This document shows positions 1,972 to 17,915 of a stretch of 17,915 nt of DNA, piece by piece; the first letter of the stretch is position 1, and every line of letters begins with the position of its first letter. The DNA is from a virus (Duplodnaviria > Heunggongvirae > Uroviricota > Caudoviricetes). A program made the translations under genes and the position numbers. Under the pieces are notes generated by a model that did no database searches, had not been told where the DNA came from, and was given only the letters and a program-made list of their open reading frames with translations. The stretch lies in IMG/VR virus record IMGVR_UViG_2703718843_000008; one strand, written 5' to 3'.

Positions 1972-3036
1972 TTAGAGATCTAAGCTCTGCTGTATCGGCT
2001 GTGCTTTTAAATCATGATTATTATTCAAAATATAATTACTCATCTCATTCAATTCAAAAGGCATTAAAAAAGATAAAGAATTTCTATTTTCTTCAGCAAA
2101 CTTCAATTCTGGTCTACTTTCATACGTAGTAGGAAGATATGGACTCGCTATCTTTTTTGCATACTTAAAAGCATAATCAACAGTATGTGATGTTCCACTT
2201 TTAATATTCCATTCGACTGGTATTAGTGAATCACATAAAGCAGCCTGGATTCTGTTGCGCCTTACAAAATTTTCTGCGCTATATGTTTGTTCAGGTAGAT
2301 ACTCGGTAACGATAGCCCCACCATTAGAAACTATTGCTCGATATAACTCTTTAGAACCTTTCGGATACTCGACAAAAATCCCATTACCCAATACCGCAAT
2401 AGTTGGAATGCCATATCTCAGCGATTCATAATGACAACATTGATCTATTCCTGTCGCCAAACCACTGACTGTTGAAACATCTTTAGAATATAGAGAAGAA
2501 ACAATCAGTTTTACTAGAAAAATACCATCATCCGTTGGCTTTCGTGTCCCCACAATTGCAACAGATTTCTTATTAAGAAGTTCATAATTACCATGAACAA
2601 AAATCCAAAATGGCGGATCGCTTATGTTCTTTAATGATTGAGGAAATGTAGCCTGATCATAAAAGGTGAGCACAATACCATTTTTATTGAGTTCACGAGC
2701 TCTCTCCAGTCCCTTAGACCAAAGGTCTTGTTGAAATGTTTCCCAAGATATATTTTTAGGCAAGGAAACTCTTAGATATCCTGCCAAGGCATCAGCTGTA
2801 TTATCTTTTAATATATTCTTAAATCCAATTTTGGATTGATAGATTTTGCGAAGCGTCCAGTAACCAACCCCCTTTAGACAAGTTAAGGCAAGAAACGCAA
2901 TAATTTCATTTTTCCAAAACTCTCTAACTTCAGTGTAATCTTTATATTCCATTTTACGTTTGCCTTTTAGATTACAACCCGTACTCAACACAAAAAATTT
3001 AGAAAATTGTTGCCAAAAGCATATTATAAATAGCAT
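1972..3036 (-). CDS. DprA/Smf-like (SLOG superfamily) protein; candidate defense partner of the PRTase protein
   Basis: Rossmann-like DprA signature VAIVGTRKPTDDG ... SGLATGIDQCCH ... TIAVLGNG ... YP ... RRNRIQAAL. Stop codon lies 10 nt before the PRTase ATG, so the two are co-transcribed. True start may be the internal ATG at 2952 (MEYKDY...); the first 28 codons are AT-rich and include a TATAAT. Confidence 0.8.
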   Translation of the reverse strand: MLFIICFWQQFSKFFVLSTGCNLKGKRKMEYKDYTEVREFWKNEIIAFLALTCLKGVGYWTLRKIYQSKIGFKNILKDNTADALAGYLRVSLPKNISWETFQQDLWSKGLERARELNKNGIVLTFYDQATFPQSLKNISDPPFWIFVHGNYELLNKKSVAIVGTRKPTDDGIFLVKLIVSSLYSKDVSTVSGLATGIDQCCHYESLRYGIPTIAVLGNGIFVEYPKGSKELYRAIVSNGGAIVTEYLPEQTYSAENFVRRNRIQAALCDSLIPVEWNIKSGTSHTVDYAFKYAKKIASPYLPTTYESRPELKFAEENRNSLSFLMPFELNEMSNYILNNNHDLKAQPIQQSLDL

Positions 3037-3366: not shown

Positions 3367-3639
3367 TCAGACAGGAATCTGCTGACGGCTTGACAGTTTT
3401 GACGCGGAGCCATAGCGATTGAGCGTTTGCTGTTGTTTTACCAGGGTTTGTGATTTGTCTGGTTCCTGTTCATTGCGCCGGGGTTTCATGATTATCTTAT
3501 CCACACTCTCCAGTGCCGTAAATGTGCAGGAACATTCCAGATTCTGGCACTGATACCACGAGCGTTTAACTGACGGAGCTTCATAGGCTGCTGTTCTGGC
3601 GTGTGCAACTGTACCGCATTCCGGACATTTAAGTGCCAT
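3367..3639 (-). CDS. ogr: Ogr/Delta-family zinc-finger late transcription activator
   Basis: MALKCPECGTVAHARTAAYEAPSVKRSWYQCQNLECSCTFTALESV matches the P2 Ogr / P4 Delta C-x2-C ... C-x4-C pattern. ATG at 3639 is preceded by AGGAG; the ORF-track start at 3648 is a GTG. Confidence 0.85.
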   Translation of the reverse strand: MALKCPECGTVAHARTAAYEAPSVKRSWYQCQNLECSCTFTALESVDKIIMKPRRNEQEPDKSQTLVKQQQTLNRYGSASKLSSRQQIPV

Positions 3640-3644
3640 TAATA

Positions 3645-4196
3645 TCACTCCTGTATATCGTTAATGTCATTCAGGCGTTGCTGAAAACGCAGATGTTGTG
3701 CCGGAGTGTAAGAGCCCTGGCAATCACGAATCATACTGGGGTCAGGCATCAAACCGGATTCATCCAGGATCTCACGATAATCCCCGGCAATTTCAGGCGG
3801 TGTTATTGCCAGCTGGCGAACCAGAGCACTGCGTAATATACGAAACGCAACGTCAACCCCTCCGCGTCCCTTCAGGAACGGAGCCAGTGCAGATGTCAGG
3901 GCTGCCCCATTCGCCTGCATAAAATTGCTGAGAGCGGCTTCTGTGCAGGCCTCCATCAATAAATGCTGCGAGTAAATGCATTCGCGCGCAGCACAGTTAA
4001 TTTGCCATTTCAGCACATCCAGACGTTCCCGCAGTAATTCGAGCTGTCGGGCATAATCTGCTGGTTTTTCTGTGGCAGTGAGGAGAGATGCTATCTGTTG
4101 TTCAACGGCTTTTCGGCTCTCACTATGTCCGGCCCACAGAATACGGGCATTCCGAAAACTGGTAAGTGCCTGGTCAGGTGTGCCTCGGGCCGTCAT
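3645..4196 (-). CDS. psu: Psu-like polarity suppression protein (P4 family)
   Basis: 183 aa. Segments LKWQINCAA ... FMQANGAALTSALAPFLKG ... YTPAQ resemble P4 Psu as I recall it. ATGA overlap with the upstream gene; AAGGAG RBS. Confidence 0.7.
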   Translation of the reverse strand: MTARGTPDQALTSFRNARILWAGHSESRKAVEQQIASLLTATEKPADYARQLELLRERLDVLKWQINCAARECIYSQHLLMEACTEAALSNFMQANGAALTSALAPFLKGRGGVDVAFRILRSALVRQLAITPPEIAGDYREILDESGLMPDPSMIRDCQGSYTPAQHLRFQQRLNDINDIQE

Positions 4197-4936
4197 ACTG
4201 CTTTCTCCTTCTCAGCAAGTTCCTGACGAACCTTTATTTTATGCATAGCTGCCGGAGAGAGTTGATTACTGAAATCCAGACGCGCCGCATAATCCGGGGC
4301 AACTCCCGCCAGTTTAAACACCGGGTCCTGTTCAGGCATCGCATCGTTAGCCAGAGCCGGTCTGGTGATATGTTTATGAATAAAGTCTTTCAGCACTGTG
4401 TCCGGGTCATTAACTGAATTCACCACACCCACAACGGCACTGGCTTCCCGGCCCATTGTGGATTTAAGCAGGCTCAGCGTCTGAATAAGCGCTTTTCCAT
4501 GCGACTGCATAAAATCCTCCCAGATTTGTTTTGCGCGAATATCCACAAGAATGTTATGCGCGTGGATATACTTTCCGGCTAATTCCGCAGCTTTCTGCGG
4601 CAAAAGTGCATTTTCGCTTTCCTGAGCCGCCAGCAGCTCATCAAAATCCTCAAGCGTTTCTCGTCCCAGCGCAATTTCCGTGCGCAGTTTTTTCATTTCC
4701 TTTGAGACCACGCCCTGACTTTCACGAAACAGCGTGCGCCACTCCTCATTCAGTGTATTCGTCGTGGATTCCATTTCAGCGCGGCGCTGGCGGATTGTCG
4801 CAATATTATCCGCTGCCGCTTTCTGCTGACGACGTGCTTCAAGCCATGCGTTTCTGGCTGTGTTCATGGTTTCCAGTGCCCGCTGCGTTACAGCCGGAAA
4901 AGTGGAAAGGTTGTTATTCACTGCGGTGTTGTTCAT
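4193..4936 (-). CDS. sid: Sid-like capsid size determination (external scaffold) protein, putative
   Basis: 247-aa helical, Gln/Glu/Ala-rich protein directly upstream of psu and ogr. Assignment rests on size and position, not a specific motif. Confidence 0.45.
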   Translation of the reverse strand: MNNTAVNNNLSTFPAVTQRALETMNTARNAWLEARRQQKAAADNIATIRQRRAEMESTTNTLNEEWRTLFRESQGVVSKEMKKLRTEIALGRETLEDFDELLAAQESENALLPQKAAELAGKYIHAHNILVDIRAKQIWEDFMQSHGKALIQTLSLLKSTMGREASAVVGVVNSVNDPDTVLKDFIHKHITRPALANDAMPEQDPVFKLAGVAPDYAARLDFSNQLSPAAMHKIKVRQELAEKEKAV

Positions 4937-5337: not shown

Positions 5338-8010
5338 TTAACCCGGCACCTCGCTGTTGAAGACATAGAGCCTGCGGGGATTCATCTCTGGCGGGCGAAT
5401 GGTTGTCTGGAGTTTGCCATCAGTGGAGGGCAGCAGGTATCCACGATCTGCGCACAGACGCGCCACCTTGCGCGGGTCAAATCCCCTGCAGATTTCTTTC
5501 CAGCCGGACGGCATGACATAAAACGTAGTGACAGCTTCCGTGCCCTGCGCGGTACTGCCTTTCTCCACCCTGCGCCAGCCCACCATATTGGCGGGACGGT
5601 TGCGCTCGTCATACCAGTCTGCAAAGCGGCTGTACTGATTCGCGGTAAAGAAACTGCGAACCTGCTCCAGTGCGGCGATATCTTCCTGATTGGCGGTGTG
5701 CCCGCGCTCTTTCAGCCATGCGTTCAGGCAGACGCGGGTTGCCCGCAATGCTTCACCCTCAGGCCAGCCGGTGATACCCAGACGGGTTGCCAGTTCACCT
5801 GCCATCGCCACCAGTGCAAAGCGGTTCACAGCCCGGCCCACCTGATTGCCTGCATCTTTCGGAGTCAGGGCGGCAGCATATTCCTTCATCAGCGATTTTG
5901 CCTGTGCCGTTAGTCCGTTAAGATCAGCGGTCAGTGCTTTCAGCCACTCCCGGAACGGCGAACCGTAGTAGCAGGACGTGGCCCATTCAAGATGCTCTGC
6001 CAGAGCCTTGCCGCTGTCGAAGCCGTGCAGCTCCTCAAAAACGCCAAACTTCCCGGAATCGCTGGGGATCTGGATCATCCTGACTTCCATCCCGGCAAAA
6101 GTACGCTCACCGGCCTTTGCCGCATGTTCGGTCAGAGATAACTCGCCAGTTGAAAAGAACAACAGGCGCCACTGCTTACGGGTACGCAGTTCACCGTCCG
6201 TACCGGCACGACTCTTGCCCTGACCGTTTGCCAGCATGTAGGCGATATTGCCTGCCTCGCGTCCGTCAACTTCCCGGATCTCATCAAGCATCATGGCGGC
6301 ATCGTTGCGGCGGCTGGCACATCCCTCCAGCGCGTTGCCGGTGGCCCGCCATGTCTGCCAGTAGTCAGGCCCGCCGCAGACGGAGGTTGCCGCTTTCATG
6401 GTGGTGGTCTTACCGTCTGTCGATTCCCCTTTGAGGTGGTAGCCGCCGCCGTCCATACCAACCAGCCGTAACAGTGGTGCAGCAAAGGCCAGGCTGACAG
6501 CAAATGCCACGCGGGAGTTGCCGGTACAGTAGCGGGATACGTTCTCCCGCCATTCCTCTGTTGTGCCCGACACGCGGAAATCACGCCCCTGCACGGAAGT
6601 GGTCTGGAGAATGACACCCTCTGCACCTTCACCGCTGACCTCATCCTGCAGGACGTAAACCTGACCATGCCAGCCAGTACGGCTGACGCAGGTCACGCGA
6701 CGTTCCGGTTTACACAGTGAGATATATTCCATCAGGCGTGCGCGTGCCTCACCGGTGGTGCTGATATAAGACAGCCCGTTAACAAGCAGTACCCGGCGCA
6801 GTTCCTCACCACTGCCGCTCAGCATTTCCATCGGCATCGCCCAGCGGCGACGCTCACCCCACGTATCTTCCCATTCCAGCAGTCGTCCGAAGTTACCGCC
6901 ATCGGCATCGCAGGTGATTGCCGTCACGCGCAGCGGGCTGCATATTTTGACGTTCTGGATCTCCGTCTCACCGTTGCGCTGTACCTGCTTTTCATACCAG
7001 AGATATTCCTGGGTAAGACGGAACCCGTGCGGCAGTTGCGTGCGGCCTTCCCCGCACAGTACCAGACCGTTGCGAAAGGCTTCACGGGCACGGGTAATAC
7101 CGTGCTCCCGATGAAAGTCATTCCAGTCAGCCTTAATCTCTCCTGGTGGCAGCGTCATCCAGCCGCCAACAGCTTTTGCCGCCCGTTCAGCAAAGGCTCT
7201 GCCGGGATTCTCCCCCCCGTCCTGAAAATCGTTATCACCGGCGATGATAATTTTTACCTCAGGCCAGCGTGCCCGCAGCGACTGCGCCACATTGGGCAGG
7301 TTGCCCGCAGATATGGCAGCCACTACGCATCCGGCAGTGAGCTGGCTTACCGTCAGCGCCGTAGCGTAACCTTCGGTAATCACCACCTGTACCGGTGGTT
7401 CAGACGGTAACGGGCTGAGCGACACAAACGCGCCTTTCATCGTGCTGCCGGGCAGTATGCTTTTTTCACCCGTCGGGGCGATAAGCTGTGCACCGGTCAC
7501 GGCTCCGGTGTTGGTCGTGAGTGGTAACAGCAGGGAACCGGCAGGAAAATCCTTACCGCTGATATGCTGCACGCTTCCGGTCAGAGAGGCCGGGTATCCG
7601 GCGAACCCTTTTCCTGCCAGATAGGCACTTTCTCCCGTGTGGCTCTCTTTCATCAGCGTCGCCACGGTAAGGCTCATGTCGCGTTTAGGGGCTTTTTGTC
7701 TGGCAGGCTTAACAGGCAGTTCCTGCACATCCGGCACATTAAGCACCTGCGCCACCTGCTGCGCAGCCTTTCTGACGTTGTAGCCGGTTACGAGCTTAAC
7801 CAGATCCAGACCGTCACCATTGCCACACTGGCTGCAGATCCACGTCCCGCGCCCGTCAAGGTCATCGAGGCGAAAACGATCCTTGCCCCCACATTTCGGG
7901 CAGGGACCGTGCCTGCCGTTTTCAGGTACATCAATACGCAGCATATGCAGAATAACGGGCCATTTCCCCCGCGCGGCGGCTGAAATCTGCGTAACCGTCT
8001 GTATTGTCAT
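5338..8010 (-). CDS. P4 alpha-like replicative primase-helicase
   Basis: 890 aa. N-terminal zinc-binding motif CPKCGG ... CSQCG; Toprim-like VVITEGYATA ... IIIAGDND; P-loop GESTDGKTTT. ATGA overlap with the upstream ORF. Confidence 0.9.
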   Translation of the reverse strand: MTIQTVTQISAAARGKWPVILHMLRIDVPENGRHGPCPKCGGKDRFRLDDLDGRGTWICSQCGNGDGLDLVKLVTGYNVRKAAQQVAQVLNVPDVQELPVKPARQKAPKRDMSLTVATLMKESHTGESAYLAGKGFAGYPASLTGSVQHISGKDFPAGSLLLPLTTNTGAVTGAQLIAPTGEKSILPGSTMKGAFVSLSPLPSEPPVQVVITEGYATALTVSQLTAGCVVAAISAGNLPNVAQSLRARWPEVKIIIAGDNDFQDGGENPGRAFAERAAKAVGGWMTLPPGEIKADWNDFHREHGITRAREAFRNGLVLCGEGRTQLPHGFRLTQEYLWYEKQVQRNGETEIQNVKICSPLRVTAITCDADGGNFGRLLEWEDTWGERRRWAMPMEMLSGSGEELRRVLLVNGLSYISTTGEARARLMEYISLCKPERRVTCVSRTGWHGQVYVLQDEVSGEGAEGVILQTTSVQGRDFRVSGTTEEWRENVSRYCTGNSRVAFAVSLAFAAPLLRLVGMDGGGYHLKGESTDGKTTTMKAATSVCGGPDYWQTWRATGNALEGCASRRNDAAMMLDEIREVDGREAGNIAYMLANGQGKSRAGTDGELRTRKQWRLLFFSTGELSLTEHAAKAGERTFAGMEVRMIQIPSDSGKFGVFEELHGFDSGKALAEHLEWATSCYYGSPFREWLKALTADLNGLTAQAKSLMKEYAAALTPKDAGNQVGRAVNRFALVAMAGELATRLGITGWPEGEALRATRVCLNAWLKERGHTANQEDIAALEQVRSFFTANQYSRFADWYDERNRPANMVGWRRVEKGSTAQGTEAVTTFYVMPSGWKEICRGFDPRKVARLCADRGYLLPSTDGKLQTTIRPPEMNPRRLYVFNSEVPG

Positions 8011-8390
8011 ACTTCCCCCTGATACAACGTCACACCAGTACTGCAGAAGTCATCAAAGGTCGCCGGAAGCGTGCGGTACATCTCCGCCATTACTTCACAG
8101 CCGCGCGCGGTCAGTACCGGCGGCGCGGTCAGCAGTGACGGCTCCAGCATGTCAGTCAGCAGTGCCAGCGCGGCAGCGGCGCCCTGTGCTTCGCCGTACT
8201 CGTTAATCAGTGCGCACTCGATATGCAGCGCAATGGCCATTTCAATACGCTCCACCGTCAGGCTGTGCGGACCATACTGATCACTGCCAGTTTCGTTCAG
8301 CATTTTCTGCCGCCATGCTGAAGCAATAGCCCGCCGGTAAAGCGCGGTTGTCATTTCTGCCGGGAAAATGGAAACCTGCGGCTGGTTCAT
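8007..8390 (-). CDS. Hypothetical satellite early-operon protein
   Basis: 127-aa ORF with strong RBS (GAAGGAGGTG); translationally coupled on both sides by ATGA overlaps. Confidence 0.55.
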   Translation of the reverse strand: MNQPQVSIFPAEMTTALYRRAIASAWRQKMLNETGSDQYGPHSLTVERIEMAIALHIECALINEYGEAQGAAAALALLTDMLEPSLLTAPPVLTARGCEVMAEMYRTLPATFDDFCSTGVTLYQGEV

Positions 8391-8671
8391 CTGGCACCTC
8401 CTTCAATCAGTGCACAGCTGTGCGCAATATCCGTCAAATCTGCCCGCAGGTACTCCATCAGCGCGGCGACACCATGCGCACAGCCAGCGTCCAGTGCTCC
8501 GGCCTGAGACGAGTATTCAGAAAAGAGAAGCTGGAGCATGTCGCAGGCATTTCTTGCGCGGGTCAGCTTTCCGAAACTGTCCTCTGACAACCCATAGGCA
8601 AAAGCACCGGTATTGTGTTTTTCAGGCAAAGTGTGGCCCTGAGCACCGTTGTGCCCGTTTGAAATATTCAT
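8387..8671 (-). CDS. Hypothetical satellite early-operon protein
   Basis: 94-aa ORF, ATG start with ACGGAG RBS, ATGA overlap with the downstream gene. Confidence 0.55.
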   Translation of the reverse strand: MNISNGHNGAQGHTLPEKHNTGAFAYGLSEDSFGKLTRARNACDMLQLLFSEYSSQAGALDAGCAHGVAALMEYLRADLTDIAHSCALIEGGAR

Positions 8672-8702: not shown

Positions 8703-9062
8703 TCAGAGAAACTTTGAATAGTGACCGTCGTCAGGCTCAGCAGAACGCCGTATGCTACGCTCCCGCCAGCGGATAAATAGCACAGACGGATGCAGTGTCA
8801 GCGGGCCGGAACCACTACCGCCTGCAGGAGCTGGTGCAGGCTTAAAGAGCGGTACATCAAACAGGCGCGTATACCGCTGTTCAAACCATGCCAGAGGGCA
8901 GGAAGAAAGCTGGTTGTCGCTGTCATGACGTATCAGCACTTCACAGCTGAATTCAGGATTAACCAGCGCCACAGAGGGCGAGGCTTCAATTAATCGGATA
9001 ATCGTGACCGTCCAGCCACGTTCATGCTGCCAGCGTTCGCCGGGGTGCGGATAATTACGCAT
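8703..9062 (-). CDS. Hypothetical satellite early-operon protein
   Basis: ORF-track start at 9092 is a TTG; the ATG at 9062 (MRNYPHPGERW...) is preceded by GGAGGTG and is the likelier start. Confidence 0.5.
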   Translation of the reverse strand: MRNYPHPGERWQHERGWTVTIIRLIEASPSVALVNPEFSCEVLIRHDSDNQLSSCPLAWFEQRYTRLFDVPLFKPAPAPAGGSGSGPLTLHPSVLFIRWRERSIRRSAEPDDGHYSKFL

Positions 9063-9231
9063 GTTCACCTCCGCAGGGAATGCGCCCGGCAAAGCTCAGT
9101 ACATAATCCGGGGCAAGTCTGCGCCGCGCTGACCGCTCGTTATCTGCGGTGATCCTTAACATCACAGGACGGGCATTGCGTTGACTGCGGTTGATCGCCG
9201 CAAATAACCAGGTACACTTCTGTTTAGCCAT
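9055..9231 (-). CDS. Small hypothetical protein (58 aa), first gene of the leftward operon
   Basis: ATG with AAGAGGT RBS; MAKQKCTWLFAAINRSQRNARPVMLRITADNERSARRRLAPDYVLSFAGRIPCGGEHA. Below the 60-aa ORF-track cutoff. Stop overlaps the next gene's start. Confidence 0.4.
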   Translation of the reverse strand: MAKQKCTWLFAAINRSQRNARPVMLRITADNERSARRRLAPDYVLSFAGRIPCGGEHA

Positions 9232-9320
9232 CTTCGTTACCTCTTATAACGGTTGGTTAAATGCCCGATTTGTGTTCCCGCACAATCGGGCATTGCTTTT
9301 ACAAGCGAACTATACTTACA

Positions 9321-9365
9321 ATGGTAATTACCATGTAGTCATCATATTCTAGGGTAATTACCATG
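9321..9365. promoter_or_regulatory. Two palindromic operator-like sites in the divergent promoter region
   Basis: ATGGTAATTACCAT (9321..9334, perfect 14-bp palindrome) and GGTAATTACC (9353..9362). The second overlaps the ATG of the ribbon-helix-helix gene. Confidence 0.5.
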
Positions 9366-9536
9366 TCAACACCACAAGAGAAACGTTCCCCACCATTCCA
9401 AATGCGTCTTACCGACGATTTTAGGTTGCAACTCGAAAAAGAAATGCGCAAAGATGGAGATAGCGCGTTGGCAACTTGGATTAAAAGAATTTTACGTAAA
9501 GAACTACAATCACGCGGGATTGACCCTAAAGGTTAA
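9363..9536 (+). CDS. Arc/Mnt-like ribbon-helix-helix repressor (57 aa)
   Basis: PPFQMRLTDDFRLQLEKEMRKDG-DSALATWIKRILRKEL follows the beta-strand/helix/helix pattern of Arc-type repressors. Divergent from the early operon. Not in the ORF track (under 60 aa). Confidence 0.55.
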   Translation: MSTPQEKRSPPFQMRLTDDFRLQLEKEMRKDGDSALATWIKRILRKELQSRGIDPKG

Positions 9537-9568: not shown

Positions 9569-9859
9569 TTAGGGAGTAGGTGATAATCTATTCCCTTTAT
9601 TAATTGCTCTTGCCTTATTTCTCATCCCCTCAAACTGTTGACCTGAGTTTTCTTCAAACCCATCTCGCCACTTATAATAATCAGCAGCGCGCCATCGGGA
9701 CATCCGACCTATTTTTATAGGTTTTGGAAAGCGATTCAGAGAAATCAATCGATAAATCCATTTGTCACTTAATAAACAATCGGAAGTAATAAACTTCATA
9801 TCGATCAGAGAATCCATTGAAGGTCGTTGCAAAGTAGTATTATCATGTTTAGATAACAT
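9569..9859 (-). CDS. AlpA/Vis-family HTH protein (excisionase or regulator)
   Basis: 96 aa; IYRLISLNRFPKPIKIGRMSRWRAADYYKW matches the AlpA-type pattern (FP-P-I-G ... W ... W). GGAG RBS. Confidence 0.75.
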   Translation of the reverse strand: MLSKHDNTTLQRPSMDSLIDMKFITSDCLLSDKWIYRLISLNRFPKPIKIGRMSRWRAADYYKWRDGFEENSGQQFEGMRNKARAINKGNRLSPTP

Positions 9860-9984: not shown

Positions 9985-10809
9985 TTAGTTAAACTTAATG
10001 TTTTTCATGCAACTACGTAGCAAGCTAACAACAGTATCATAGCTCAAAGGTGGTTCTCCGGTCTTAGGCCAGAACTCACTGGCATGTTGAAAAAGATAAT
10101 CAGCTATCGCTGCTGGACTCTCTCTTCTTAGCCTCATATCACGATGATAGAGCGAAATAATAGCCATGAGTATTTCAGTTCGAGGAACAGCATGTTTTTG
10201 TTTTTGCGCCTCAGATTGTGATTTATATTTATTGGCGTTTTTTATCCGTTTTTGTTCGCATAAGACTATATCAATGAATTTTTGAATCTGTACCTTTGTA
10301 ATCCACAAAACCTCAAAAAGATAATAATTTTCTTTTTCATCATAATTTACATAAAGAATTACCTTACAATTTATATTAGGCGTACCCGCCAGTAGAAAAT
10401 GAATAGGCCAGGAATCCGGTTGCCCCTCATGCTTAACTAACAGATCTTTATATTCATAATCAACAGCCCATAAACCGGATATAAAGCATCGAATAAAACC
10501 ATTTTTATCAATTAAATTATTTTCATCAGGGATTCTTATAGAGCTTAAGTCTGACAACATAATATTGCCATTTCTATCTCGTGGTAAATATTTCAGATTA
10601 GATAAGAACTCATCCATTTGACCATCAATCTTCAAACCACATGAAACATCATACTCATCATCATGGAATTCCATGCATAGCTCTACATCTCGTTCTCTGG
10701 CAAACCAGAGTATATCCTTTTCACTACAACCAATTTTTTCTGAAGCTTCATCCAACTGGTAGTAATCTCTGAGCAGAGAATCAGTATTATTAATTTTTAA
10801 AATATTCAT
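9985..10809 (-). CDS. Hypothetical protein, AT-rich orphan cargo gene translationally coupled to the integrase
   Basis: 274-aa ORF whose ATG overlaps the integrase stop (ATGA). Marked AT-rich codon usage; no motif I can recognise. Confidence 0.65.
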   Translation of the reverse strand: MNILKINNTDSLLRDYYQLDEASEKIGCSEKDILWFARERDVELCMEFHDDEYDVSCGLKIDGQMDEFLSNLKYLPRDRNGNIMLSDLSSIRIPDENNLIDKNGFIRCFISGLWAVDYEYKDLLVKHEGQPDSWPIHFLLAGTPNINCKVILYVNYDEKENYYLFEVLWITKVQIQKFIDIVLCEQKRIKNANKYKSQSEAQKQKHAVPRTEILMAIISLYHRDMRLRRESPAAIADYLFQHASEFWPKTGEPPLSYDTVVSLLRSCMKNIKFN

Positions 10810-11996
10810 TTATGAGTACCAATTAGCTCAGATAAATAATTAGCATACCATTGCATCATTTCTCTTCTCCCTTCGAGATATTGGGCATGGTTATAAATTC
10901 CACGAATAGAGTTTTTGTCCGAATGAGCAAGCTGGGTTTCAATCCAAGCGCTGTTAAATCCTTTCTCATGTAGAATTGTACTCATCGTATGCCTGAAACC
11001 ATGTCCCGTAACACGCCCTGCATATCCAATACGTTTAAACACCTGATTGATGCTTGCTTCACTCATAAATTTGCTAGGATCGTTGCGTCCAGGGAACATC
11101 AGCGGGTAGTTCCCAGTTAGTTCTTTCAAACTTTTGAGATGGGATAATGCTTGTTTTGGTAACGGGACAATATGGCTCCTACGCATTTTCATACGTTCTT
11201 TTGGGATCTCCCACACCGCATTATCAAAATCCACCTCTCGCCACTCACCTGCTCGTAGTTCTCCAGTTCGTAGACCTGTCAGGATAAGTAAATGCGCCCC
11301 CAACAATACAATTGGACTTCCTGAATAAGAATTAAGGGCATTAAAGAACTCCGGTAGTTCGTTGGCTTTGAGGAATGGATAGTGGACTGCTTCATGTCCT
11401 TGCATCGCACTGGCAAGATCCGGTGCCGGATTGTAGATTGCCCTACCCGTTACGATGGCATAGCGAAAAACTTCACCGCATCGCTGACGGACTTTCTTCG
11501 CTTTCTCCATAGCGCCTCGAGCTTCTATCAACCTCAGAACTTCAAGCAGTTCAAGGGGCTGAATATCAGCTATAGGTCTGTGCCCAATATGCGGAAAAAT
11601 GTCTTTCTCAAATGCCTCAATGATGTCGGAAGCATAGCCCTCAGACCATTTGGATGATTTCATTTTGTGCCACTCTAACGCCACTTCTCTGAATGGGTTA
11701 AGTGTCTCAATCGCTGCGTTTAAAGCCTGCTTTTTGGCTTTTTTGACTTCGCCGGGATCTTCACCTGCTGCGAGTAGTTTCTTTGCGTCTTCTCGTTTTT
11801 GTCTGGCATCAGCAAGTGTGACTGTTGGATAAACACCAAAGGACAATCGTTTCTCTTTACCAGCAAAACGGTATTTCATACGCCAGTAACGCGAGCCATT
11901 AGGTTCGACCTGAAGGTATAGGCCACCTCCATCAAACAGCTTATAGCTCTTCTCTTTTCCTTTCGCAGCTTCAACCTTGCGGGCATTCAGCATCAT
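10806..11996 (-). CDS. int: P4-type tyrosine integrase
   Basis: N-terminus KSYKLFDGGGLYLQVEPNGSRYWRMKYRFAGKEKRLSFGVYP is typical of P4-family integrases; C-terminal catalytic residues HGFRHT ... Y. ORF-track start at 12065 is a TTG; ATG at 11996 or 11993 (MMLNARKVE) fits the family N-terminus better. Confidence 0.9.
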   Translation of the reverse strand: MMLNARKVEAAKGKEKSYKLFDGGGLYLQVEPNGSRYWRMKYRFAGKEKRLSFGVYPTVTLADARQKREDAKKLLAAGEDPGEVKKAKKQALNAAIETLNPFREVALEWHKMKSSKWSEGYASDIIEAFEKDIFPHIGHRPIADIQPLELLEVLRLIEARGAMEKAKKVRQRCGEVFRYAIVTGRAIYNPAPDLASAMQGHEAVHYPFLKANELPEFFNALNSYSGSPIVLLGAHLLILTGLRTGELRAGEWREVDFDNAVWEIPKERMKMRRSHIVPLPKQALSHLKSLKELTGNYPLMFPGRNDPSKFMSEASINQVFKRIGYAGRVTGHGFRHTMSTILHEKGFNSAWIETQLAHSDKNSIRGIYNHAQYLEGRREMMQWYANYLSELIGTHK

Positions 11997-12160
11997 TGGG
12001 GGCACATTTCCTAGACCGAACAGAACATGCCCCTGATTGTGCCCCCAACCGCGTGTTGATTTCAAGAGACAAGGGTTGACCTCAAACGTATGAAAACAAC
12101 GTAATATATATGTTTTTAAATGATTTTGTTGATGTGGGTTGACTTGGGAAAACTAGGTGA

Positions 12161-12209
12161 TGGTGCCGATAATAGGAGTCGAACCTACGACCTTCGCATT
12201 ACGAATGCG
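12161..12209 (-). pseudogene. ptwF: Partial tRNA-Thr(CGU) gene, 3' 49 nt only (thrW-like att remnant)
   Basis: Minus strand reads CGCATTCGTAATGCGAAGGTCGTAGGTTCGACTCCTATTATCGGCACCA: anticodon stem-loop with CGT anticodon, T-arm (GGTTCGACTCC), acceptor 3' strand and CCA. No D-arm or 5' acceptor strand upstream. The symbol is my recollection of the K-12 name. Confidence 0.75.
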
Positions 12210-12318
12210 ATGTTAATGCATTTTTAACTACTTGAGCAATCAATCAAAACAACATACTTTATATTATAAAACACCAAGTTATAGCAATAAACCCGTTGAT
12301 TGAAATTAACAAAAGTTG

Positions 12319-13719
12319 ATGTTTATTCCCTCCATTTACTTACACCAGCAGTTACATTATTGTAAGACAGCAATTCTCAACTGGAGCCGAAAAATGGCGC
12401 TTTCAAGACAAAAATTTACCTTCGAAAGACTTCGCAGATTCACCTTACCGGAAGGGAAAAAACAAACTTTTCTTTGGGATGCAGATGTAACAACCCTGGC
12501 ATGCCGAGCAACTAGCGGAGCAAAAGCCTTTGTATTCCAAAGCGTATATGCGGGGAAAACCCTTCGCATGACTATTGGCAACATTAACGACTGGAAGATT
12601 GATGATGCGAGAGCCGAGGCAAGACGGTTACAAACATTGATCGATACAGGGATAGATCCACGAATTGCTAAGGCTGTAAAAATCGCAGAAGCAGAATCCC
12701 TGCAGGCAGAATCACGTAAAACAAAAGTGACTTTCTCCGTCGCCTGGGAAGACTATCTTCAAGAATTGAGAACCGGTATCAGTGCAAAAACTAAACGCCC
12801 ATATTCTACTCGATACATTGCCGATCACATTAACTTGTCCAGTCGTGGAGGCGAAAGTAAAAAAAGAGGCCAAGGCCCGACTTCGGCTGGACCATTGGCT
12901 AGTTTGCTCAACCTGCCGTTATCGGAGCTAACCCCAGATTACATAGCAGCGTGGCTGAGTACAGAAAGGCAAAATAGACCTACCGTCACTGCTCACGCTT
13001 ATCGCCTACTACGTGCTTTCATCAAATGGAGTAATTATCAGAAAAAATATCAAGGGATCATTCCTGGCGATCTGGCACAAGATTACAACGTAAGAAAAAT
13101 GGTTCCCGTGTCAGCGAGTAAAGCTGATGATTGCCTGCAAAAGGAACAACTAAAAAGCTGGTTTAGTGCCGTGCGTAGCCTCAATAATCCTATTGCATCG
13201 GCCTATCTCCAAGTACTTTTGCTCACTGGTGCTCGGCGTGAAGAAATTGCGTCGCTTCGCTGGTCAGACGTAGATTTCAAATGGTCAAGCATGCGAATTA
13301 AAGACAAGATCGAAGGTGAACGTATCATCCCTCTCACTCCTTATGTTTCTGAATTGTTAAATGTACTAGCGCAATCCCCAAATTCTGACGTAAATAAGGA
13401 GGGTTGGGTTTTCAGAAGTAACAGTAAAAGTGGCAAAATTATTGAGCCGCGTTCAGCGCACAACAGAGCGTTAGTGCTGGCTGAGTTACCACATATCAGC
13501 CTTCACGGTTTACGTCGTAGTTTTGGTACTTTGGCCGAGTGGGTTGAAGTTCCCACTGGTATTGTTGCTCAAATTATGGGACACAAACCCAGCGCTCTTG
13601 CCGAAAAACACTATCGCCGTCGTCCGTTAGATCTGTTACGAAAATGGCACGAGAAAATTGAGACATGGATCTTAAATGAAGCAGGTATTACCATAAAAAA
13701 CAACGTTGATATGCGTTGA
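12319..13719 (+). CDS. intF: Tyrosine integrase of the neighbouring cryptic prophage
   Basis: Tyrosine recombinase motifs LLLTGARREE ... HGLRRSFGT ... GHKPSALAEKHY. First ATG at 12319 gives 466 aa (ORF-track start 12316 is a TTG). Confidence 0.85.
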   Translation: MFIPSIYLHQQLHYCKTAILNWSRKMALSRQKFTFERLRRFTLPEGKKQTFLWDADVTTLACRATSGAKAFVFQSVYAGKTLRMTIGNINDWKIDDARAEARRLQTLIDTGIDPRIAKAVKIAEAESLQAESRKTKVTFSVAWEDYLQELRTGISAKTKRPYSTRYIADHINLSSRGGESKKRGQGPTSAGPLASLLNLPLSELTPDYIAAWLSTERQNRPTVTAHAYRLLRAFIKWSNYQKKYQGIIPGDLAQDYNVRKMVPVSASKADDCLQKEQLKSWFSAVRSLNNPIASAYLQVLLLTGARREEIASLRWSDVDFKWSSMRIKDKIEGERIIPLTPYVSELLNVLAQSPNSDVNKEGWVFRSNSKSGKIIEPRSAHNRALVLAELPHISLHGLRRSFGTLAEWVEVPTGIVAQIMGHKPSALAEKHYRRRPLDLLRKWHEKIETWILNEAGITIKNNVDMR

Positions 13720-13835
13720 TTCCATTAAAAATCAACATATTACAAAATATCATCAACTATTGATCAAGATAGATTTTCATGTATCGTAATACACAGTTTA
13801 GTCAATGATACAGCAACTACACAGGAGATAAGCCA

Positions 13836-14276
13836 ATGGCAACCCCAGCAACTGTATCCATAGAACCCACTCTGGCAGCTATCAGAGCTCGCTGGTGTAT
13901 TAATTCAAGTAAAACAACTCAATCCTTTAACGATCCTGCGTCCATGGAAGAGGTTGTCGAGTATCTCAAAGGAACATACTCAGCTCTTCGCAAGTCTGTC
14001 GCATGCGCCAAACTGAAAATTTTACATCTTAAACAAAGAATGCAAAATGCTACTAACTTTCTCGCGCGTCTGATGTCATGTAAAAATCAGGCATCCAGAT
14101 CGCATCACAGTACGGCTAAATCAGCTAAAAGTGCCTTATCATCAGATTCAGGTGATGGTAGTGACCCCGACCCCGAGCCCGAAACGTTTCCTTCTGCCTT
14201 CATTACTACCCCTACTAATTCAATAATGCTTAAAGCTTTCTTTGCCAATATCTCAATCACTGAGGTGGCAAAATGA
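13836..14276 (+). CDS. yagN: Hypothetical prophage protein
   Basis: 146-aa ORF, AGGAG RBS, Ser-rich acidic C-terminal region. Symbol from recollected size and context only. Confidence 0.6.
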   Translation: MATPATVSIEPTLAAIRARWCINSSKTTQSFNDPASMEEVVEYLKGTYSALRKSVACAKLKILHLKQRMQNATNFLARLMSCKNQASRSHHSTAKSAKSALSSDSGDGSDPDPEPETFPSAFITTPTNSIMLKAFFANISITEVAK

Positions 14277-14497
14277 GCGCATTCAAACTCCCGGATACAT
14301 CTCAATCACAGCTCATTTCAACAGCTGAGTTAGCTAAAATCATTAGCTACAAATCTCAAACCATTCGTAAATGGCTTTGTCAGGACAAATTGCCTGAGGG
14401 GCTACCTCGCCCAAAACAAATCAATGGCCGCCATTACTGGTTACGTAAAGATGTCCTCGATTTTATAGATACATTTTCTGTACGAGAAAGTCTGTAA
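14273..14497 (+). CDS. Small HTH protein, AlpA/excisionase-like
   Basis: 74 aa, GAGGTGG RBS, start overlaps the upstream stop (ATGA). LISTAELAKIISYKSQTIRKWL ... INGRHYWLRKDVLDFI. Confidence 0.55.
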   Translation: MSAFKLPDTSQSQLISTAELAKIISYKSQTIRKWLCQDKLPEGLPRPKQINGRHYWLRKDVLDFIDTFSVRESL

Positions 14498-14615
14498 TAA
14501 ATTACAGATTTAATTTTATTGATTTATAGCGATGTTGCCCCGAGAAAAATGGGGCAACACTGAGAAATTTCAGATAGTAGTTTTATATTGAGATAACAAA
14601 GAGGTTTCCTTAAAA

Positions 14616-15470
14616 ATGTCTAATAGTGTTACTAATTTTGAGATGAGCAGCGTTCTACCAGGAAAAAAACCTTGTCAAGGCAAAAACAATGAGTCACAGG
14701 TAGTACAGACTACTCCCATAAAAAAACACTCAGTCACGTTCAAAAATCAATCTTCATTAGGAGTAATTGATCATTATGCCAGACTAACAAATAAATCTCA
14801 CTCTTCCGTAATAGCGGAAGTTGTGGATTTGGCTATCCCTATATTAGAAAAATGCAATCGTCATAACTGGTCAATAAATGAAATAAAAAATGACCTGTTA
14901 AAGTTCTCTATAAAAGAAAGCATCAATCGAAGCCGAGGTAAAACAGAAGTAACTCTGGAAGAGTACTGTTCGTTAATCTGGAAAACGAACATCATGAGTC
15001 CATTAAAAATCCCCATTGCAGATTACTTTCAACTGAACGCTAATGATGAATTCATGGGGAAAGATGAAAAAACAGTTATACGTGAAAGGCTATCCTCGCT
15101 AAGGGAAAATTACGATATGGAAAAAGCCATTTACATTTACAATCAAAGACATTTTGATGTAAAGCATCAAAGTGTCTCAGGATATTCAAACATTATTCTT
15201 ATTCATAGAACAACCTTTGAGGGTTATTACTTTGATGCCGGGCAGGCTCTACTCTTGTCAACATCCCAATTGATTATATTCGGGATAAATGAAGTTCTTA
15301 GAAGAAAGGGGATTGTTATGCCTTATCCGGTTGTTTGTTGGATTGATATTTACCATGTCAATGAAATGGTGGTTATGCTGCCAGTGCTCCGCAAAACAGA
15401 TGTTTCCAACCGTGTTAATGTACCGGATGACATCATTATAAACCCATACTCACAAGAGAGCAGAACCTAA
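14616..15470 (+). CDS. yagM: Hypothetical prophage protein
   Basis: 284-aa ORF, AAAGAGG RBS, AT-rich. Symbol from recollected size and context only. Confidence 0.65.
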   Translation: MSNSVTNFEMSSVLPGKKPCQGKNNESQVVQTTPIKKHSVTFKNQSSLGVIDHYARLTNKSHSSVIAEVVDLAIPILEKCNRHNWSINEIKNDLLKFSIKESINRSRGKTEVTLEEYCSLIWKTNIMSPLKIPIADYFQLNANDEFMGKDEKTVIRERLSSLRENYDMEKAIYIYNQRHFDVKHQSVSGYSNIILIHRTTFEGYYFDAGQALLLSTSQLIIFGINEVLRRKGIVMPYPVVCWIDIYHVNEMVVMLPVLRKTDVSNRVNVPDDIIINPYSQESRT

Positions 15471-15496
15471 GAGGTAACAAAGAAGGACAAACAATT

Positions 15497-16195
15497 ATGA
15501 GAGGTAAAATACTACTTTACCAGTTAAAGTATCGCTGGCAATCACTCTCTATTTTTGGTTGTTTTTTATGCAAAATGACATTATTCAGGTATCAAAAAAT
15601 AATTTATGACACCGGAGTGCATCAGATGCGTTCATTTTTTTACACCATATGCAGTAGCGAACAGCAAGAAAGCATTACAGATCATCACTCACTTGCTGAG
15701 ATATGCCAAAAATTTAATATTCTACCTGAACATGTTGTGATCGAGCAGGTAGATATTAAAGAGGTTGTTTCAGAGCAACGTTTACTCAGACAATTGATTC
15801 ATCATGAAATGAACCGGCAGGACACGCTTGTCATTCCAGATCTAAGCTGTCTTGGCAGAACTGTGGAGGACTTACAGAATATTTTATTTTTTTGCCTTCA
15901 AAAAGAAATGTTTATCTACAGCTACCATCCAGCTTCAAGGATAGAGCCTTCTGCTGAAAGTTGCTTGTCTTTTTTGATTGCTCGTCAGGATACGATTGAC
16001 ATTCACAATCTGAAATCAACTAAAAGCCGATATCGACATGTTAAGAAGAAATTAGGACGAAAGGAGGGAAGCAAATACCGACGTGATATCACAATACTTA
16101 AGAAAGGTGGATTTACTCAGGCTGAGATTGCAAAGAAATTGAGTATCAGTTTATCGACTGTGAAGCGGCACTGGAATAACGGAATCATCGGTTAA
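15497..16195 (+). CDS. yagL: Serine-recombinase-like protein with C-terminal HTH, probably catalytically degenerate
   Basis: Internal MRSFFYTICSSEQQ aligns with the resolvase N-terminus MRxFGYARVSTxQQ (Ser kept, the conserved Arg is Ile). C-terminal HTH GGFTQAEIAKKLSISLSTVKRHW. 232 aa. Confidence 0.65.
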   Translation: MRGKILLYQLKYRWQSLSIFGCFLCKMTLFRYQKIIYDTGVHQMRSFFYTICSSEQQESITDHHSLAEICQKFNILPEHVVIEQVDIKEVVSEQRLLRQLIHHEMNRQDTLVIPDLSCLGRTVEDLQNILFFCLQKEMFIYSYHPASRIEPSAESCLSFLIARQDTIDIHNLKSTKSRYRHVKKKLGRKEGSKYRRDITILKKGGFTQAEIAKKLSISLSTVKRHWNNGIIG

Positions 16196-16299
16196 TTCCA
16201 GAAGCTAATTGCAGAGTAACTTTTTAACAGCCATCACAGGCTGGGGCTACCTTCGTCTCAAATTTAGATGTTGGATAGGTATTATATAATGGCATTGTG

Positions 16300-16444
16300 T
16301 ACTCTTACTACCTGTATTCACCAGTAAGAGTAGTAATCAGATCAGTATGTCCGTACTAAAATCTGATACCAGTATATACCGACAACAGTGACCAGGAATA
16401 GCCCTGCCTGTATGGCATCCCTGTACGGTCTGCTATAGACCGTA
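16300..16444. repeat. Structured intergenic region with several inverted repeats and CCTGTA motifs
   Basis: 10-bp IR TACTCTTACT / AGTAAGAGTA (16300..16332); 7-bp IR ATCAGAT / ATCTGAT (16336..16367); hairpin TACGGTCT-gctat-AGACCGTA (16424..16444); CCTGTA(T/C) at 16311, 16407, 16419 and its complement at 16453. Confidence 0.4.
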
Positions 16445-16466
16445 GGACCAAATACAGGTATATATT

Positions 16467-17093
16467 ATGAAAACATATCAAGGTACTCATGGAGTACATA
16501 TCCTCGAATATCAGAGTAAGATTAATAAATTATTATGTTATTTGACTAACCGGTATCCTAGGTTAATTGCTGTACGTGTCGATCTCCACTATCCCAAAAT
16601 AGTTGATAACGGTGACAATATCTGTTGCTTCCCTAACCTGGAACCTGGGGTGATATCCCGGATGCGTGAATCCCTCAGAGCTAAGCTGGAGGCTGACCGT
16701 ACCCGTAAGGTGCGTGAGGATAAACGCATTTACCGTTGCCCTTTATTTATTATATGGGCGAAAGAGTATTCTGAATCAGGTAAATGCCACTATCACATTT
16801 GCCTGTTGTTCAACAAAGACGCTTACTACCACCTCGGGGATTACGATCAGGACGATAACCTTAGAGGGATGATCACAGGAGCCTGGTACAGCGCCCTGAG
16901 ACTGGAGAGAGACGATCACCCTGGTCTGGTCCATTTTCCTGAAAACTGTAAGTATGTGCTAGACACCAATAGTACTGACTTCCAGCAGAACTACCAGGCG
17001 CTGTTAACCCGACTGGACTACCTGACCAAAGTTGAAAGCAAAGTGTTTGGTGAAGGAGACCGTAACTTCGGCTGTAGCCAAATCGAACTGTAA
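16467..17093 (+). CDS. yagK: YagK/YfjJ-family prophage protein
   Basis: 208-aa ORF with AGGT RBS. Sequence recalls the YagK/YfjJ family found in E. coli cryptic prophages (recollection, unverified). Confidence 0.7.
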   Translation: MKTYQGTHGVHILEYQSKINKLLCYLTNRYPRLIAVRVDLHYPKIVDNGDNICCFPNLEPGVISRMRESLRAKLEADRTRKVREDKRIYRCPLFIIWAKEYSESGKCHYHICLLFNKDAYYHLGDYDQDDNLRGMITGAWYSALRLERDDHPGLVHFPENCKYVLDTNSTDFQQNYQALLTRLDYLTKVESKVFGEGDRNFGCSQIEL

Positions 17094-17102
17094 GTCGGTA
17101 AT

Positions 17103-17138
17103 GGCCTTCTCAGTGAGAAGGCCTTATTTGTATTGTTT
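17103..17138 (+). terminator. Intrinsic terminator downstream of the yagK-like gene
   Basis: Stem GGCCTTCT / AGAAGGCC with loop CAGTG, followed by TTATTTGTATTGTTT; 10 nt after the stop. Confidence 0.6.
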
Positions 17139-17183
17139 CAAAAAATTACTAAAATGCAGTTTCGTTACGCAATTTTCTATAGA

Positions 17184-17915
17184 TTACTGATAGTCATCAG
17201 CAAGTCCGCTACTAAATAACGTTTCTGCATTTTCAGCGGTAGCAACAGCATCCTGCACATCCTGCCGTTTCAAATCTAACACTCGTAATTTACCCTTTAC
17301 TTCGGCGACAGATTCGATTCGCCTGTAAGCATCAGAATGATGTTCGGCATATAGCGCAAGTCCTTCCAGTTTGGGCAAAGCATCAGCCAGATGTAGGCTA
17401 TGTGGATCTACCAGGTCCACAACCATTTTGCCATCCTGTTCGGCAAAGAACAGGAAATCGGGACGAACAATCTTGTACTGTTCAGCTTCAACATAAGCGA
17501 TTCCCAGTGACGACTGCCCTGTGTACTGTGGATTACGATACCAGAAAGCAAATCCTTCACGTTTGGTTTCGATCTCAAAAACCTTGGTTTCCCAATGGTT
17601 CAACAGAGCCGGATAGTTCCCGCTTTCGTCACACAACAAATGGTGTTTCCAGACTGGAAGGTCAGCTTCCTTTTCACCTTCACGCACCCTGGTCATTTCA
17701 AACTTGTTCGCCGGCCTGACCAGATCCACATCCTGCGGTTCGGTACTCATTTCGACGATTTGACGATAGGCCTCTTTACGCTCATCTTTCAACGACTTGA
17801 TTTGCGGTGTGTACTCGGCCAGCCACGCCTTCGCCAGTCTATCGGCCTCGCCATCGAAGTAATCCTGCACCTCCATCACCAGCCCCATGCCAGCAACGGT
17901 AACACGAGCCTCCAT
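17184..17915 (-). CDS. yagJ: Hypothetical protein; reaches the window edge, so possibly truncated at the N-terminus
   Basis: 243-aa ORF convergent with the yagK-like gene. The ATG sits exactly at the window end, so the true start could lie outside. Symbol from recollected size and context only. Confidence 0.5.
   Translation of the reverse strand: MEARVTVAGMGLVMEVQDYFDGEADRLAKAWLAEYTPQIKSLKDERKEAYRQIVEMSTEPQDVDLVRPANKFEMTRVREGEKEADLPVWKHHLLCDESGNYPALLNHWETKVFEIETKREGFAFWYRNPQYTGQSSLGIAYVEAEQYKIVRPDFLFFAEQDGKMVVDLVDPHSLHLADALPKLEGLALYAEHHSDAYRRIESVAEVKGKLRVLDLKRQDVQDAVATAENAETLFSSGLADDYQ

Follow-up and report, generated by a model that had tools for sequence, protein, structure and literature searches.

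An icd-like gene at the head of the replication operon of a P4-like satellite, and candidate elements for its control

We analysed a stretch of 17,915 nucleotides (nt) from the virus record IMGVR_UViG_2703718843_000008 (Caudoviricetes), hereafter the window, which contains a P4-like satellite integrated at thrW of Escherichia coli. Our subject is a small open reading frame (ORF) of 58 amino acids (aa) on the minus strand at the head of the early operon of this satellite, together with the sequences around its start and its stop. An initial annotation had singled out this ORF as an unlisted coding sequence with a good ribosome-binding site (RBS). The ORF and its Shine-Dalgarno (SD) sequence lie as follows.

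9055..9231, minus strand: icd-like (kil-type) ORF, 58 aa, gene 1 of the early operon, assigned from the NCBIfam model NF033153, RefSeq identity, the ratio of nonsynonymous to synonymous substitution rates (dN/dS), and likeness to P4
9240..9243, minus strand: SD of the icd-like ORF, GAGG, 8 nt before the ATG, read from the sequence

The frame starts with the ATG at 9231, runs for 58 codons to a TAA stop at 9057..9055, and encodes MAKQKCTWLFAAINRSQRNARPVMLRITADNERSARRRLAPDYVLSFAGRIPCGGEHA (MAKQKCTWLF...GGEHA*). A homology search had been proposed as a check of this ORF, and it returned a known family. The protein matched NCBIfam NF033153 ("host cell division inhibitor Icd-like protein") with 84 bits (E = 5.5e-24; the curated cutoff is 25 bits), and aa 6-52 aligned to positions 1-47 of the 48 in the model, which makes the ORF a member of the family. 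The same model recognised P4 Kil with 76.1 bits and P1 Icd with 52.6 bits, and the best matches of the ORF among phages (tblastn) were in the immunity regions of P4, N15, and PY54. The ORF was not unlisted, as RefSeq already holds an identical protein (WP_001118612.1), named 'host cell division inhibitor Icd-like protein' in all E. coli matches listed.

Using a close-relative alignment, we found 17 related loci (L004-L020) in genomes of Enterobacter, Shigella, Citrobacter, Pseudocitrobacter, and Pantoea and in metagenome contigs. The second check that had been suggested, conservation of the frame among relatives, also bore the ORF out. In eight 58-codon sequences, pooled pairwise dN/dS was 0.08 in the annotated frame and 2.4-3.8 in four of the five alternative frames; the fifth, an antisense frame whose third codon positions coincide with those of the ORF, gave 0.27. 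Several relatives from several genera differed from the ORF at 4-10 nt with at most one amino-acid change. Since dN/dS is 0.08 and synonymous changes are many, the amino-acid sequence is the conserved unit, and the ORF is a conserved coding gene on which purifying selection is strong. An upstream GAGG or GGGAG was kept in all relatives. Thus, the ORF is almost certainly, by its sequence, a genuine gene of the Icd/Kil family, and it is one already known: a catalogued member of the family and the positional equivalent of P4 kil. The clade is also common, with a 1-kb query around the ORF matching 333 of 5,426 complete E. coli genomes (about 6%), besides its occurrence in several other enterobacterial genera.

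An AlphaFold2 model of the 58-aa protein formed a compact beta-beta-alpha-beta unit with a mean predicted local distance difference test (pLDDT) score of 80. Searched against the PDB, this model had no significant match (best E = 0.19). A search of predicted structures gave a sole significant match, another Icd-like protein that carries the domain at the end of 194 aa. Family searches detected no DNA-binding domain. An upstream extension nesting the ORF within a longer frame, as eta does in P4, was ruled out by an in-frame TAA five codons before the ATG. Some database copies of the ORF look frameshifted (P0023 from Salmonella and P0025 from E. coli), with matching ends and a scrambled middle, and one related locus (L010, 4860-7528) has its primase gene split over two frames and the DUF5375 gene missing; these suggest decaying copies or sequencing errors.

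Downstream of the ORF, the operon continues on the same strand through four further genes.

9055..9072, minus strand: coupling junction, GGAGG (9072..9068), 5 nt, and ATGCGTAA (9062..9055), read from the sequence
8703..9062, minus strand: gene 2, 119 aa, function unassigned (phrog_30862), in the place of epsilon in P4 and not similar to it
8387..8671, minus strand: gene 3, 94 aa, function unassigned (phrog_14861), with its own SD
8007..8390, minus strand: gene 4, DUF5375 (P4 ORF106 family), PF17345 with 50.8 bits, 40% identity to P4 ORF106
5338..8010, minus strand: gene 5, primase-helicase, 890 aa, with Zn ribbon, TOPRIM, and DUF927 domain matches

The ATG of gene 2 (9062..9060) lies within an 8-nt overlap with the stop of the icd-like ORF (ATGCGTAA), and the GGAGG of gene 2 sits within the final codons of the ORF. 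This arrangement, GGAGG followed after 5-6 nt by ATGCGT(A/G)(A/G), was kept in all 18 clade sequences, whether the stop was TAA, TGA, or TAG. In P4, which was compared separately, the counterpart junction is GTGCGTAA and the next gene is epsilon. Because the SD and the start of gene 2 are encoded there, the conservation of the C-terminal Gly-Gly...His-Ala of the Icd-like protein is at least partly a by-product.

Similar junctions have been described in related systems. In the P1 record, icd and ant1 share an ATGA overlap, and icd is noted as "apparently required for expression of ant". In the isrK-orf45-anrP operon of Gifsy-1, translation of orf45 was shown experimentally to be needed for AnrP synthesis, again across an AUGA overlap (PMC4825925). 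Gifsy-1 is alike in having a short first ORF with a stop that overlaps the start after it; the systems differ in that orf45 is conserved as nucleotides rather than as protein and that the IsrK RNA is an activator, and we found no Icd-like homology for orf45. Given the conserved junction and the analogy with P1, Gifsy-1, and P4, translational coupling of gene 2 to the ORF is well founded, and we consider it very probable. The suggestion that the ORF leads a translationally linked early operon, with its stop over the next start, was therefore supported by this 8-nt overlap with its internal SD.

The further claim that ATGA overlaps link the following genes down to the primase-helicase was right in part. 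Both overlaps are present, at 8390..8387 and 8010..8007, which are the two ends of gene 4, but 31 untranslated nt between the stop of gene 2 (8703) and the start of gene 3 (8671) break the chain. The proposed fixed stoichiometry across five proteins did not survive comparison with this gap and with the relatives, as short gaps replace the ATGA junctions in the Pantoea sequences and the DUF5375 gene is missing from seven loci (L010 and L014-L019). An overlap of this kind implies dependent expression, not equimolar output. Gene 2 was also considered as a homolog of P4 epsilon and rejected (BLASTP E = 19, different PHROGs, and no tblastn match in P4).

Upstream of the ORF lie a promoter, putative operators, and a divergent gene.

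9341..9369, minus strand: early-operon promoter, TTGACA-17 nt-TATGAT, 11/12 matches, the top site of the promoter scan
9321..9366, no strand assigned: putative operators, two copies of GGTAATTACCATGT at 9323-9336 and 9353-9366, from a repeat search
9363..9536, plus strand: divergent 57-aa Arc/ribbon-helix-helix-like putative repressor, with a weak match to the Arc-like phrog_228 (E = 0.002)

The promoter is a near-consensus sigma-70 type sequence. The two GGTAATTACCATGT copies are 30 bp apart and bracket its -10, and each contains the palindrome ATGGTAATTACC(A/C)T. The ATG of the divergent gene, labelled hypothetical in RefSeq, falls within the -35 of the early promoter, and homologs with 46-88% identity lie upstream of the ORF in six relatives (L006, L008, L009, and L011-L013). 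Across the window (9321-9536) and loci L004-L020, we found at least six types of operator repeats in the roughly 330 nt upstream of the ORF: GGTAATTACC; GTCAATTACAC/GTGTAATTACAC; GGTACGTACC; GTGGGCCACACCT; GTGCGATTCAC; and a sixth in L018. Each cassette type has its own divergent small gene and a repeat pair at the same place, with a near-constant operon behind it, and an identical Icd-like protein (P0014) is preceded by any of four different cassettes. The element is mosaic in its upstream half and constant in the operon. From these sequences, the exchange of cassettes looks like heteroimmunity by module swapping.

From the example of P4 and P1, a C4/CI RNA would be expected at this place. 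C4-family RNA (RF01695) was absent from the window both at the gathering threshold and at E <= 10, and C4/isrK-type RNAs were absent from ten relatives. As a control, the C4 RNA of P4 scored 74.9 bits and its isrK/seqA and a1b1 targets were present; no such target repeats (isrK/seqA, c4-a1b1) were found in the leader of the window. A C4/CI/isrK RNA upstream of the ORF was therefore rejected, and the element does not belong to the C4/CI RNA immunity system, whose defining RNA and targets it lacks. A timm-like Rho terminator or Rho-dependent polarity as in P4 was likewise considered and found no compositional support, although composition tests this only weakly.

The leader that separates the operators from the SD of the ORF holds a conserved RNA structure, which, together with signals inside the ORF, may belong to an antisense transcript.

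9260..9294, plus strand: covarying leader hairpin, better formed on this antisense strand, followed by UUGCUUUU to about 9300
9226..9300, plus strand: candidate cis-antisense RNA of about 75 nt over the start codon and SD of the ORF, proposed from SymR similarity and structure
9191..9218, plus strand: candidate antisense promoter in codons 5-14 of the ORF, TTGATC-16 nt-TACACT, picked by eye, 8/12 matches

Compensatory double changes were found in 11 of the 14 hairpin pairs, across cassette types. In 12 distinct sequences, the antisense strand gave 143 Watson-Crick, 18 G.U, and 7 mismatched cells, while the mRNA strand gave 143, 2, and 23, respectively; the non-pairing cells of the mRNA strand were all A.C, that is, G.U on the opposite strand. 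In each of 16 sequences, the antisense version of the hairpin was the more stable one. A second stem-loop is present and displays the anti-SD CCUC in its loop. With both stem-loops taken together, 96.7% of cells were paired, compared with 82.5% in column shuffles (0/500 reached the observed value) and 33-45% with slid partners. On the antisense strand, 13 of the 16 sequences carry a U-rich tract after the hairpin.

The sole Rfam family to respond was SymR (RF01809), scoring 31.6 bits in the window and 24.9 bits at the corresponding site of L004. In the reverse direction, a covariance model (R1) derived from the satellites alone had the annotated symR as its top match in the symE locus of E. 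coli K-12 (30.1 bits; the next match had 10.2); elsewhere, in about 90 kb, the best unrelated match reached 15 bits, and P4 gave no match. In K-12 (PMC1891008), SymR is an RNA of 77 nt with two hairpins and a terminator that starts 3 nt inside symE and 7 nt after TAGAAT. The predicted RNA of about 75 nt in the window has the same geometry: its candidate start, A9226, lies 3 nt inside the ORF and 7 nt past TACACT (9213-9218), with TTGATC 16 nt upstream of the latter. The motif TA(N)ACT was kept in 15 of 15 distinct coding sequences and TTGAT(C/T) in 14, L020 having TTGAAC instead. Codons 1-16 showed half the synonymous variation of the rest of the ORF.

Several points weigh against such an RNA. 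Rfam sets the gathering score of SymR at 61, about twice the scores obtained here, no U-rich tail is present in the three type-E cassettes, the candidate promoter is weak (8/12, under the scan threshold), and low synonymous variation is common at the 5' ends of genes and thus not specific. The element is no member of Rfam SymR, scoring below gathering and facing a different target protein, an Icd-like protein instead of the AbrB-fold SymE. Taking this indirect evidence together, we regard the antisense RNA as a candidate only, and the odds that it exists and represses the ORF as slightly short of even. Beside this hairpin, a 16-nt stretch of the ORF (9170-9185, CGGGCATTGCGTTGAC) resembles its 3' arm and tail (9287-9302, CGGGCATTGCTTTTAC), and an inverted repeat of 15 nt, 80% complementary, joins 9163-9177 with 9260-9274. 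Both are confined to the type-A cassette and may have arisen by chance or be a scar left by recombination.

The hairpin could instead have its function in the sense mRNA, stabilising the 5' end or binding a protein, or it could belong to the 5' untranslated region of the repressor mRNA, with no antisense regulator at all. Folding is seen on the mRNA strand too (z = -3.55), the hairpin sequence follows the repressor cassette and not the ORF, as would be expected of a cassette-specific element, and both the type-E cassettes without a U tail and the lack of a strong antisense promoter in the promoter scan would fit. However, the non-Watson-Crick cells all favour the antisense strand, as does its greater stability in every sequence compared, and there are the reciprocal SymR-like matches. 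Moreover, a plus-strand hairpin RNA requires plus-strand transcription across the start region of the ORF in any case. We consider an action on the sense strand or in the repressor mRNA rather unlikely.

What the 58-aa protein does may be judged from its relatives. P1 Icd binds FtsZ and blocks cell division, and its minimal FtsZ-inhibiting core is aa 12-51 (PMC11897509), which is exactly the part matched by NF033153. P4 Kil is lethal when overexpressed, and translation of kil/eta prevents termination in P4 (both summarised in PMC10111431). By analogy with these relatives, it is on balance probable that the 58-aa protein causes division inhibition or toxicity, and it would either arrest division during satellite replication or act as a toxic effector. 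The earlier guess of a host-interference factor thus appears close to the mark, judging from the FtsZ binder of P1 and the killer of P4. The alternative guess of a derepression factor found no support, as that role belongs in P4 to the next gene, epsilon, and gene 2 of the window does not resemble it. The distance to P1 Icd speaks against a shared activity: identity is only about 24%, and a profile of close relatives gave no significant match to it, the profile being shallow (Neff 1.5). FtsZ binding by the 58-aa protein is therefore an extrapolation, and the link to P1 Icd comes from the curated NCBIfam model, since our own profile is too shallow.

The comparison with P4 is closer. P4 has a 65-aa ORF (MATTLTPSHPEF...SRA) with its own SD, 48% identical to the ORF of the window and matching the same NCBIfam model, which we take to be kil; it forms the 3' part of the old "cI ORF137". 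In both elements this gene lies ahead of DUF5375 and the primase, and its stop overlaps the next start by 8 nt, (A/G)TGCGTAA, the next protein beginning M-R-N. P4 kil is reportedly the first translated gene of the left operon and the terminal part of eta, it is said to kill on overexpression, and translation of eta is said to prevent premature termination. Unlike the window, P4 has C4/CI RNA and isrK/seqA-type targets upstream, its kil ends the longer ORF eta, and its next gene is epsilon; the window has no C4 RNA and no eta extension and carries a protein-repressor cassette instead. P1 Icd (73 aa, immI operon c4-icd-ant1/2) is likewise a first small overlapping ORF matched by NF033153, but its overlap is ATGA and not 8 nt, the gene downstream encodes an antirepressor, and control is by C4 RNA with a b2 target at the icd RBS.

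Three other functions of the ORF were weighed. In one, the Icd-like protein is chiefly the toxic effector of an abortive-infection module fired by other phages, and not a helper in the satellite cycle. P4-like satellites are known carriers of defence systems, this satellite carries Shosta, and a preprint by Silas et al. describes phage-triggered cell death in ECOR61 by an N-terminally extended Icd-like protein and five linked genes including a primase; in the literature on Icd-like genes in P4-like satellites, we found nothing specific besides this preprint. The long N-terminal extension is absent here, however, given the in-frame stop upstream of the ATG, and the ECOR61 locus may not be homologous to that of the window. 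An effector chiefly serving abortive infection therefore seems unlikely, and it would be compatible with the explanation we favour, not exclusive of it. The ORF could also be a mere regulatory leader whose translation opens the start of gene 2 and shields the mRNA, with a functionless peptide. The invariant junction, with the SD and start of gene 2 inside the ORF, would suit such a leader, as would Gifsy-1 orf45, which acts via translation and is conserved at the nucleotide but not the amino-acid level (PMC4825925), and the prevention of termination by kil/eta translation in P4 (PMC10111431). A functionless peptide is nevertheless improbable, because the ORF combines a dN/dS of 0.08 with many synonymous changes, its family is conserved across P1, P4, and N15, P1 Icd and P4 Kil act at the protein level, and the structure model folds with confidence.

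Finally, existing labels would make the ORF a transcriptional repressor or immunity protein. Three PHROGs (phrog_1743, phrog_6928, and phrog_6196) are labelled 'transcriptional repressor', and database records call P4 ORF137 'cI gene product', the N15 protein 'secondary immunity repressor', and the PY54 protein 'immunity repressor Icd'. However, these labels predate the demonstration that CI RNA is the P4 immunity factor; the C4 RNA sits within the old ORF137, upstream of the Icd-like part, and the 58-aa protein has no detected DNA-binding domain. A repressor function is thus hardly credible. Such labels date from a reading of the P4 cI and N15 cA RNA genes as proteins, and being outdated they can mislead the automated annotation of Icd/Kil proteins.

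The remainder of the satellite is arranged around this operon. On the minus strand, the order is integrase, a 274-aa gene without a family match, an AlpA-like helix-turn-helix (HTH) gene, the icd-like ORF, the 119-aa and 94-aa genes, DUF5375, primase-helicase, two Psu-family genes, an Ogr/Delta gene, and a Shosta defence pair. A published survey (PMC8628076) recognises P4-like satellites by integrase, Psu, Delta, AlpA, epsilon, and alpha, for which the window contains the following.

10806-12065, minus strand: integrase, counting toward the P4-like satellite
3645-4196, minus strand: Psu, likewise
3367-3648, minus strand: Ogr_Delta, counting as Delta
9569-9859, minus strand: AlpA-like HTH protein, PF05930 with 20.6 bits against a cutoff of 21, named HTH regulator or AlpA family in RefSeq

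No Pfam match to epsilon (PF10554) or alpha (PF03288) was found in the window, where the primase is of the Zn-ribbon/TOPRIM/DUF927 kind; under the criteria of the survey, both of these genes would be scored as absent from the element.

The Shosta anti-phage pair (735-3036, minus strand) comprises ShosT (735-1961, 308.8 bits) and ShosA (1972-3036, 300.4 bits), named 'hypothetical' and 'DprA' in RefSeq, and it fills the accessory slot after the Ogr/Delta gene. PADLOC gave no matches on the operon proteins. A 247-aa gene (4193-4936, minus strand) occupies the position of P4 sid and adjoins the true psu on its upstream side with a 4-nt overlap. Its C-terminal half matches the Psu family with 38 bits, and the gene may encode a relative of Psu that sets capsid size in the manner of Sid. 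The 274-aa ORF (9985-10809, minus strand) overlaps the stop of the integrase gene by ATGA (10806-10809). It was kept only in L005 and L009, while other relatives have unrelated genes of 212-326 aa there, and this position may be a second variable slot. An int-alpA RNA (Rfam RF02996, 40.6 bits, above gathering) was found in L018 at 752-817, between the integrase and the next gene, and gave no match in the window.

At 12164-12237, an Rfam tRNA match of 45.5 bits corresponds to the 3' part of thrW alone. ARAGORN calls no tRNA there and the acceptor stem is unpaired, and thus this is an att repeat. Beyond it (12316-17915) lie a second integrase (12316-13719, plus strand) and resolvase/HTH-like and YagK/YfjJ genes, which indicates that the satellite stands in a tandem island array. 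The best-matching RefSeq strain differs in having the satellite flanked by proA-thrW.

Overall, the likely explanation is that an Icd/Kil-family first gene is coupled to the operon behind it and is controlled by a repressor and a candidate antisense RNA. When the Arc-like repressor leaves its operators, the strong promoter would fire and the ORF would be translated. Ribosomes on the ORF would then open the start of gene 2 or be delivered to it, and the 58-aa protein would act on the host, most likely through a block of FtsZ-dependent division of the kind caused by P1 Icd, during replication of the satellite by the primase-helicase. Under repression, the antisense RNA would silence leaky transcripts at the RBS and spare the host the toxic product. 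The junction, taken with the cases of P1 icd-ant, P4 kil, and orf45-anrP, suggests that gene 2, and possibly the genes behind it, would be expressed efficiently only when the ORF is translated. Therefore, if translation of the ORF is needed downstream, control of the RBS of the ORF would be control of the operon. Genes 3-5 have their own SDs, however, so that coupling may extend to gene 2 only. As to Rho-dependent polarity of the P4 kind, the mRNA between 9334 and 8000 contained no rut-like stretch rich in C and poor in G.

The role of C4/CI is probably taken over by the protein repressor at the promoter together with the SymR-like antisense RNA (about 9226-9300, plus strand), and the system may work like both C4 and SymR, with an antisense RNA at the RBS of a toxic first ORF. 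More tentatively, and with some doubt on our part, C4/CI immunity may have been replaced in this widespread clade by a two-layer switch. Its layers would be an exchangeable cassette with at least six specificities and an undescribed SymR-like RNA that masks the RBS of Kil/Icd, the latter two forming a type I toxin-antitoxin-like pair that gates the replication operon through coupling. The gene is known and the kind of coupling is known; the regulatory variant is possibly new.

The Icd/Kil gene is a decision point for antirepressor or replication genes in P1, P4, and N15, where it is controlled by C4-type RNA. P1 Icd and P4 Kil, the founding members, have been studied for decades, and the ORF itself adds nothing new to them. 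Finding it here is ordinary, and the regulatory replacement is a modestly interesting lead. In this clade, exchangeable protein repressors seem to govern the same control point, with a SymR-like antisense RNA as a possible second regulator. If true, this would show satellites diversifying their immunity specificity through module exchange, and SymR-type antisense control would be found to reach small toxic proteins of a new class.

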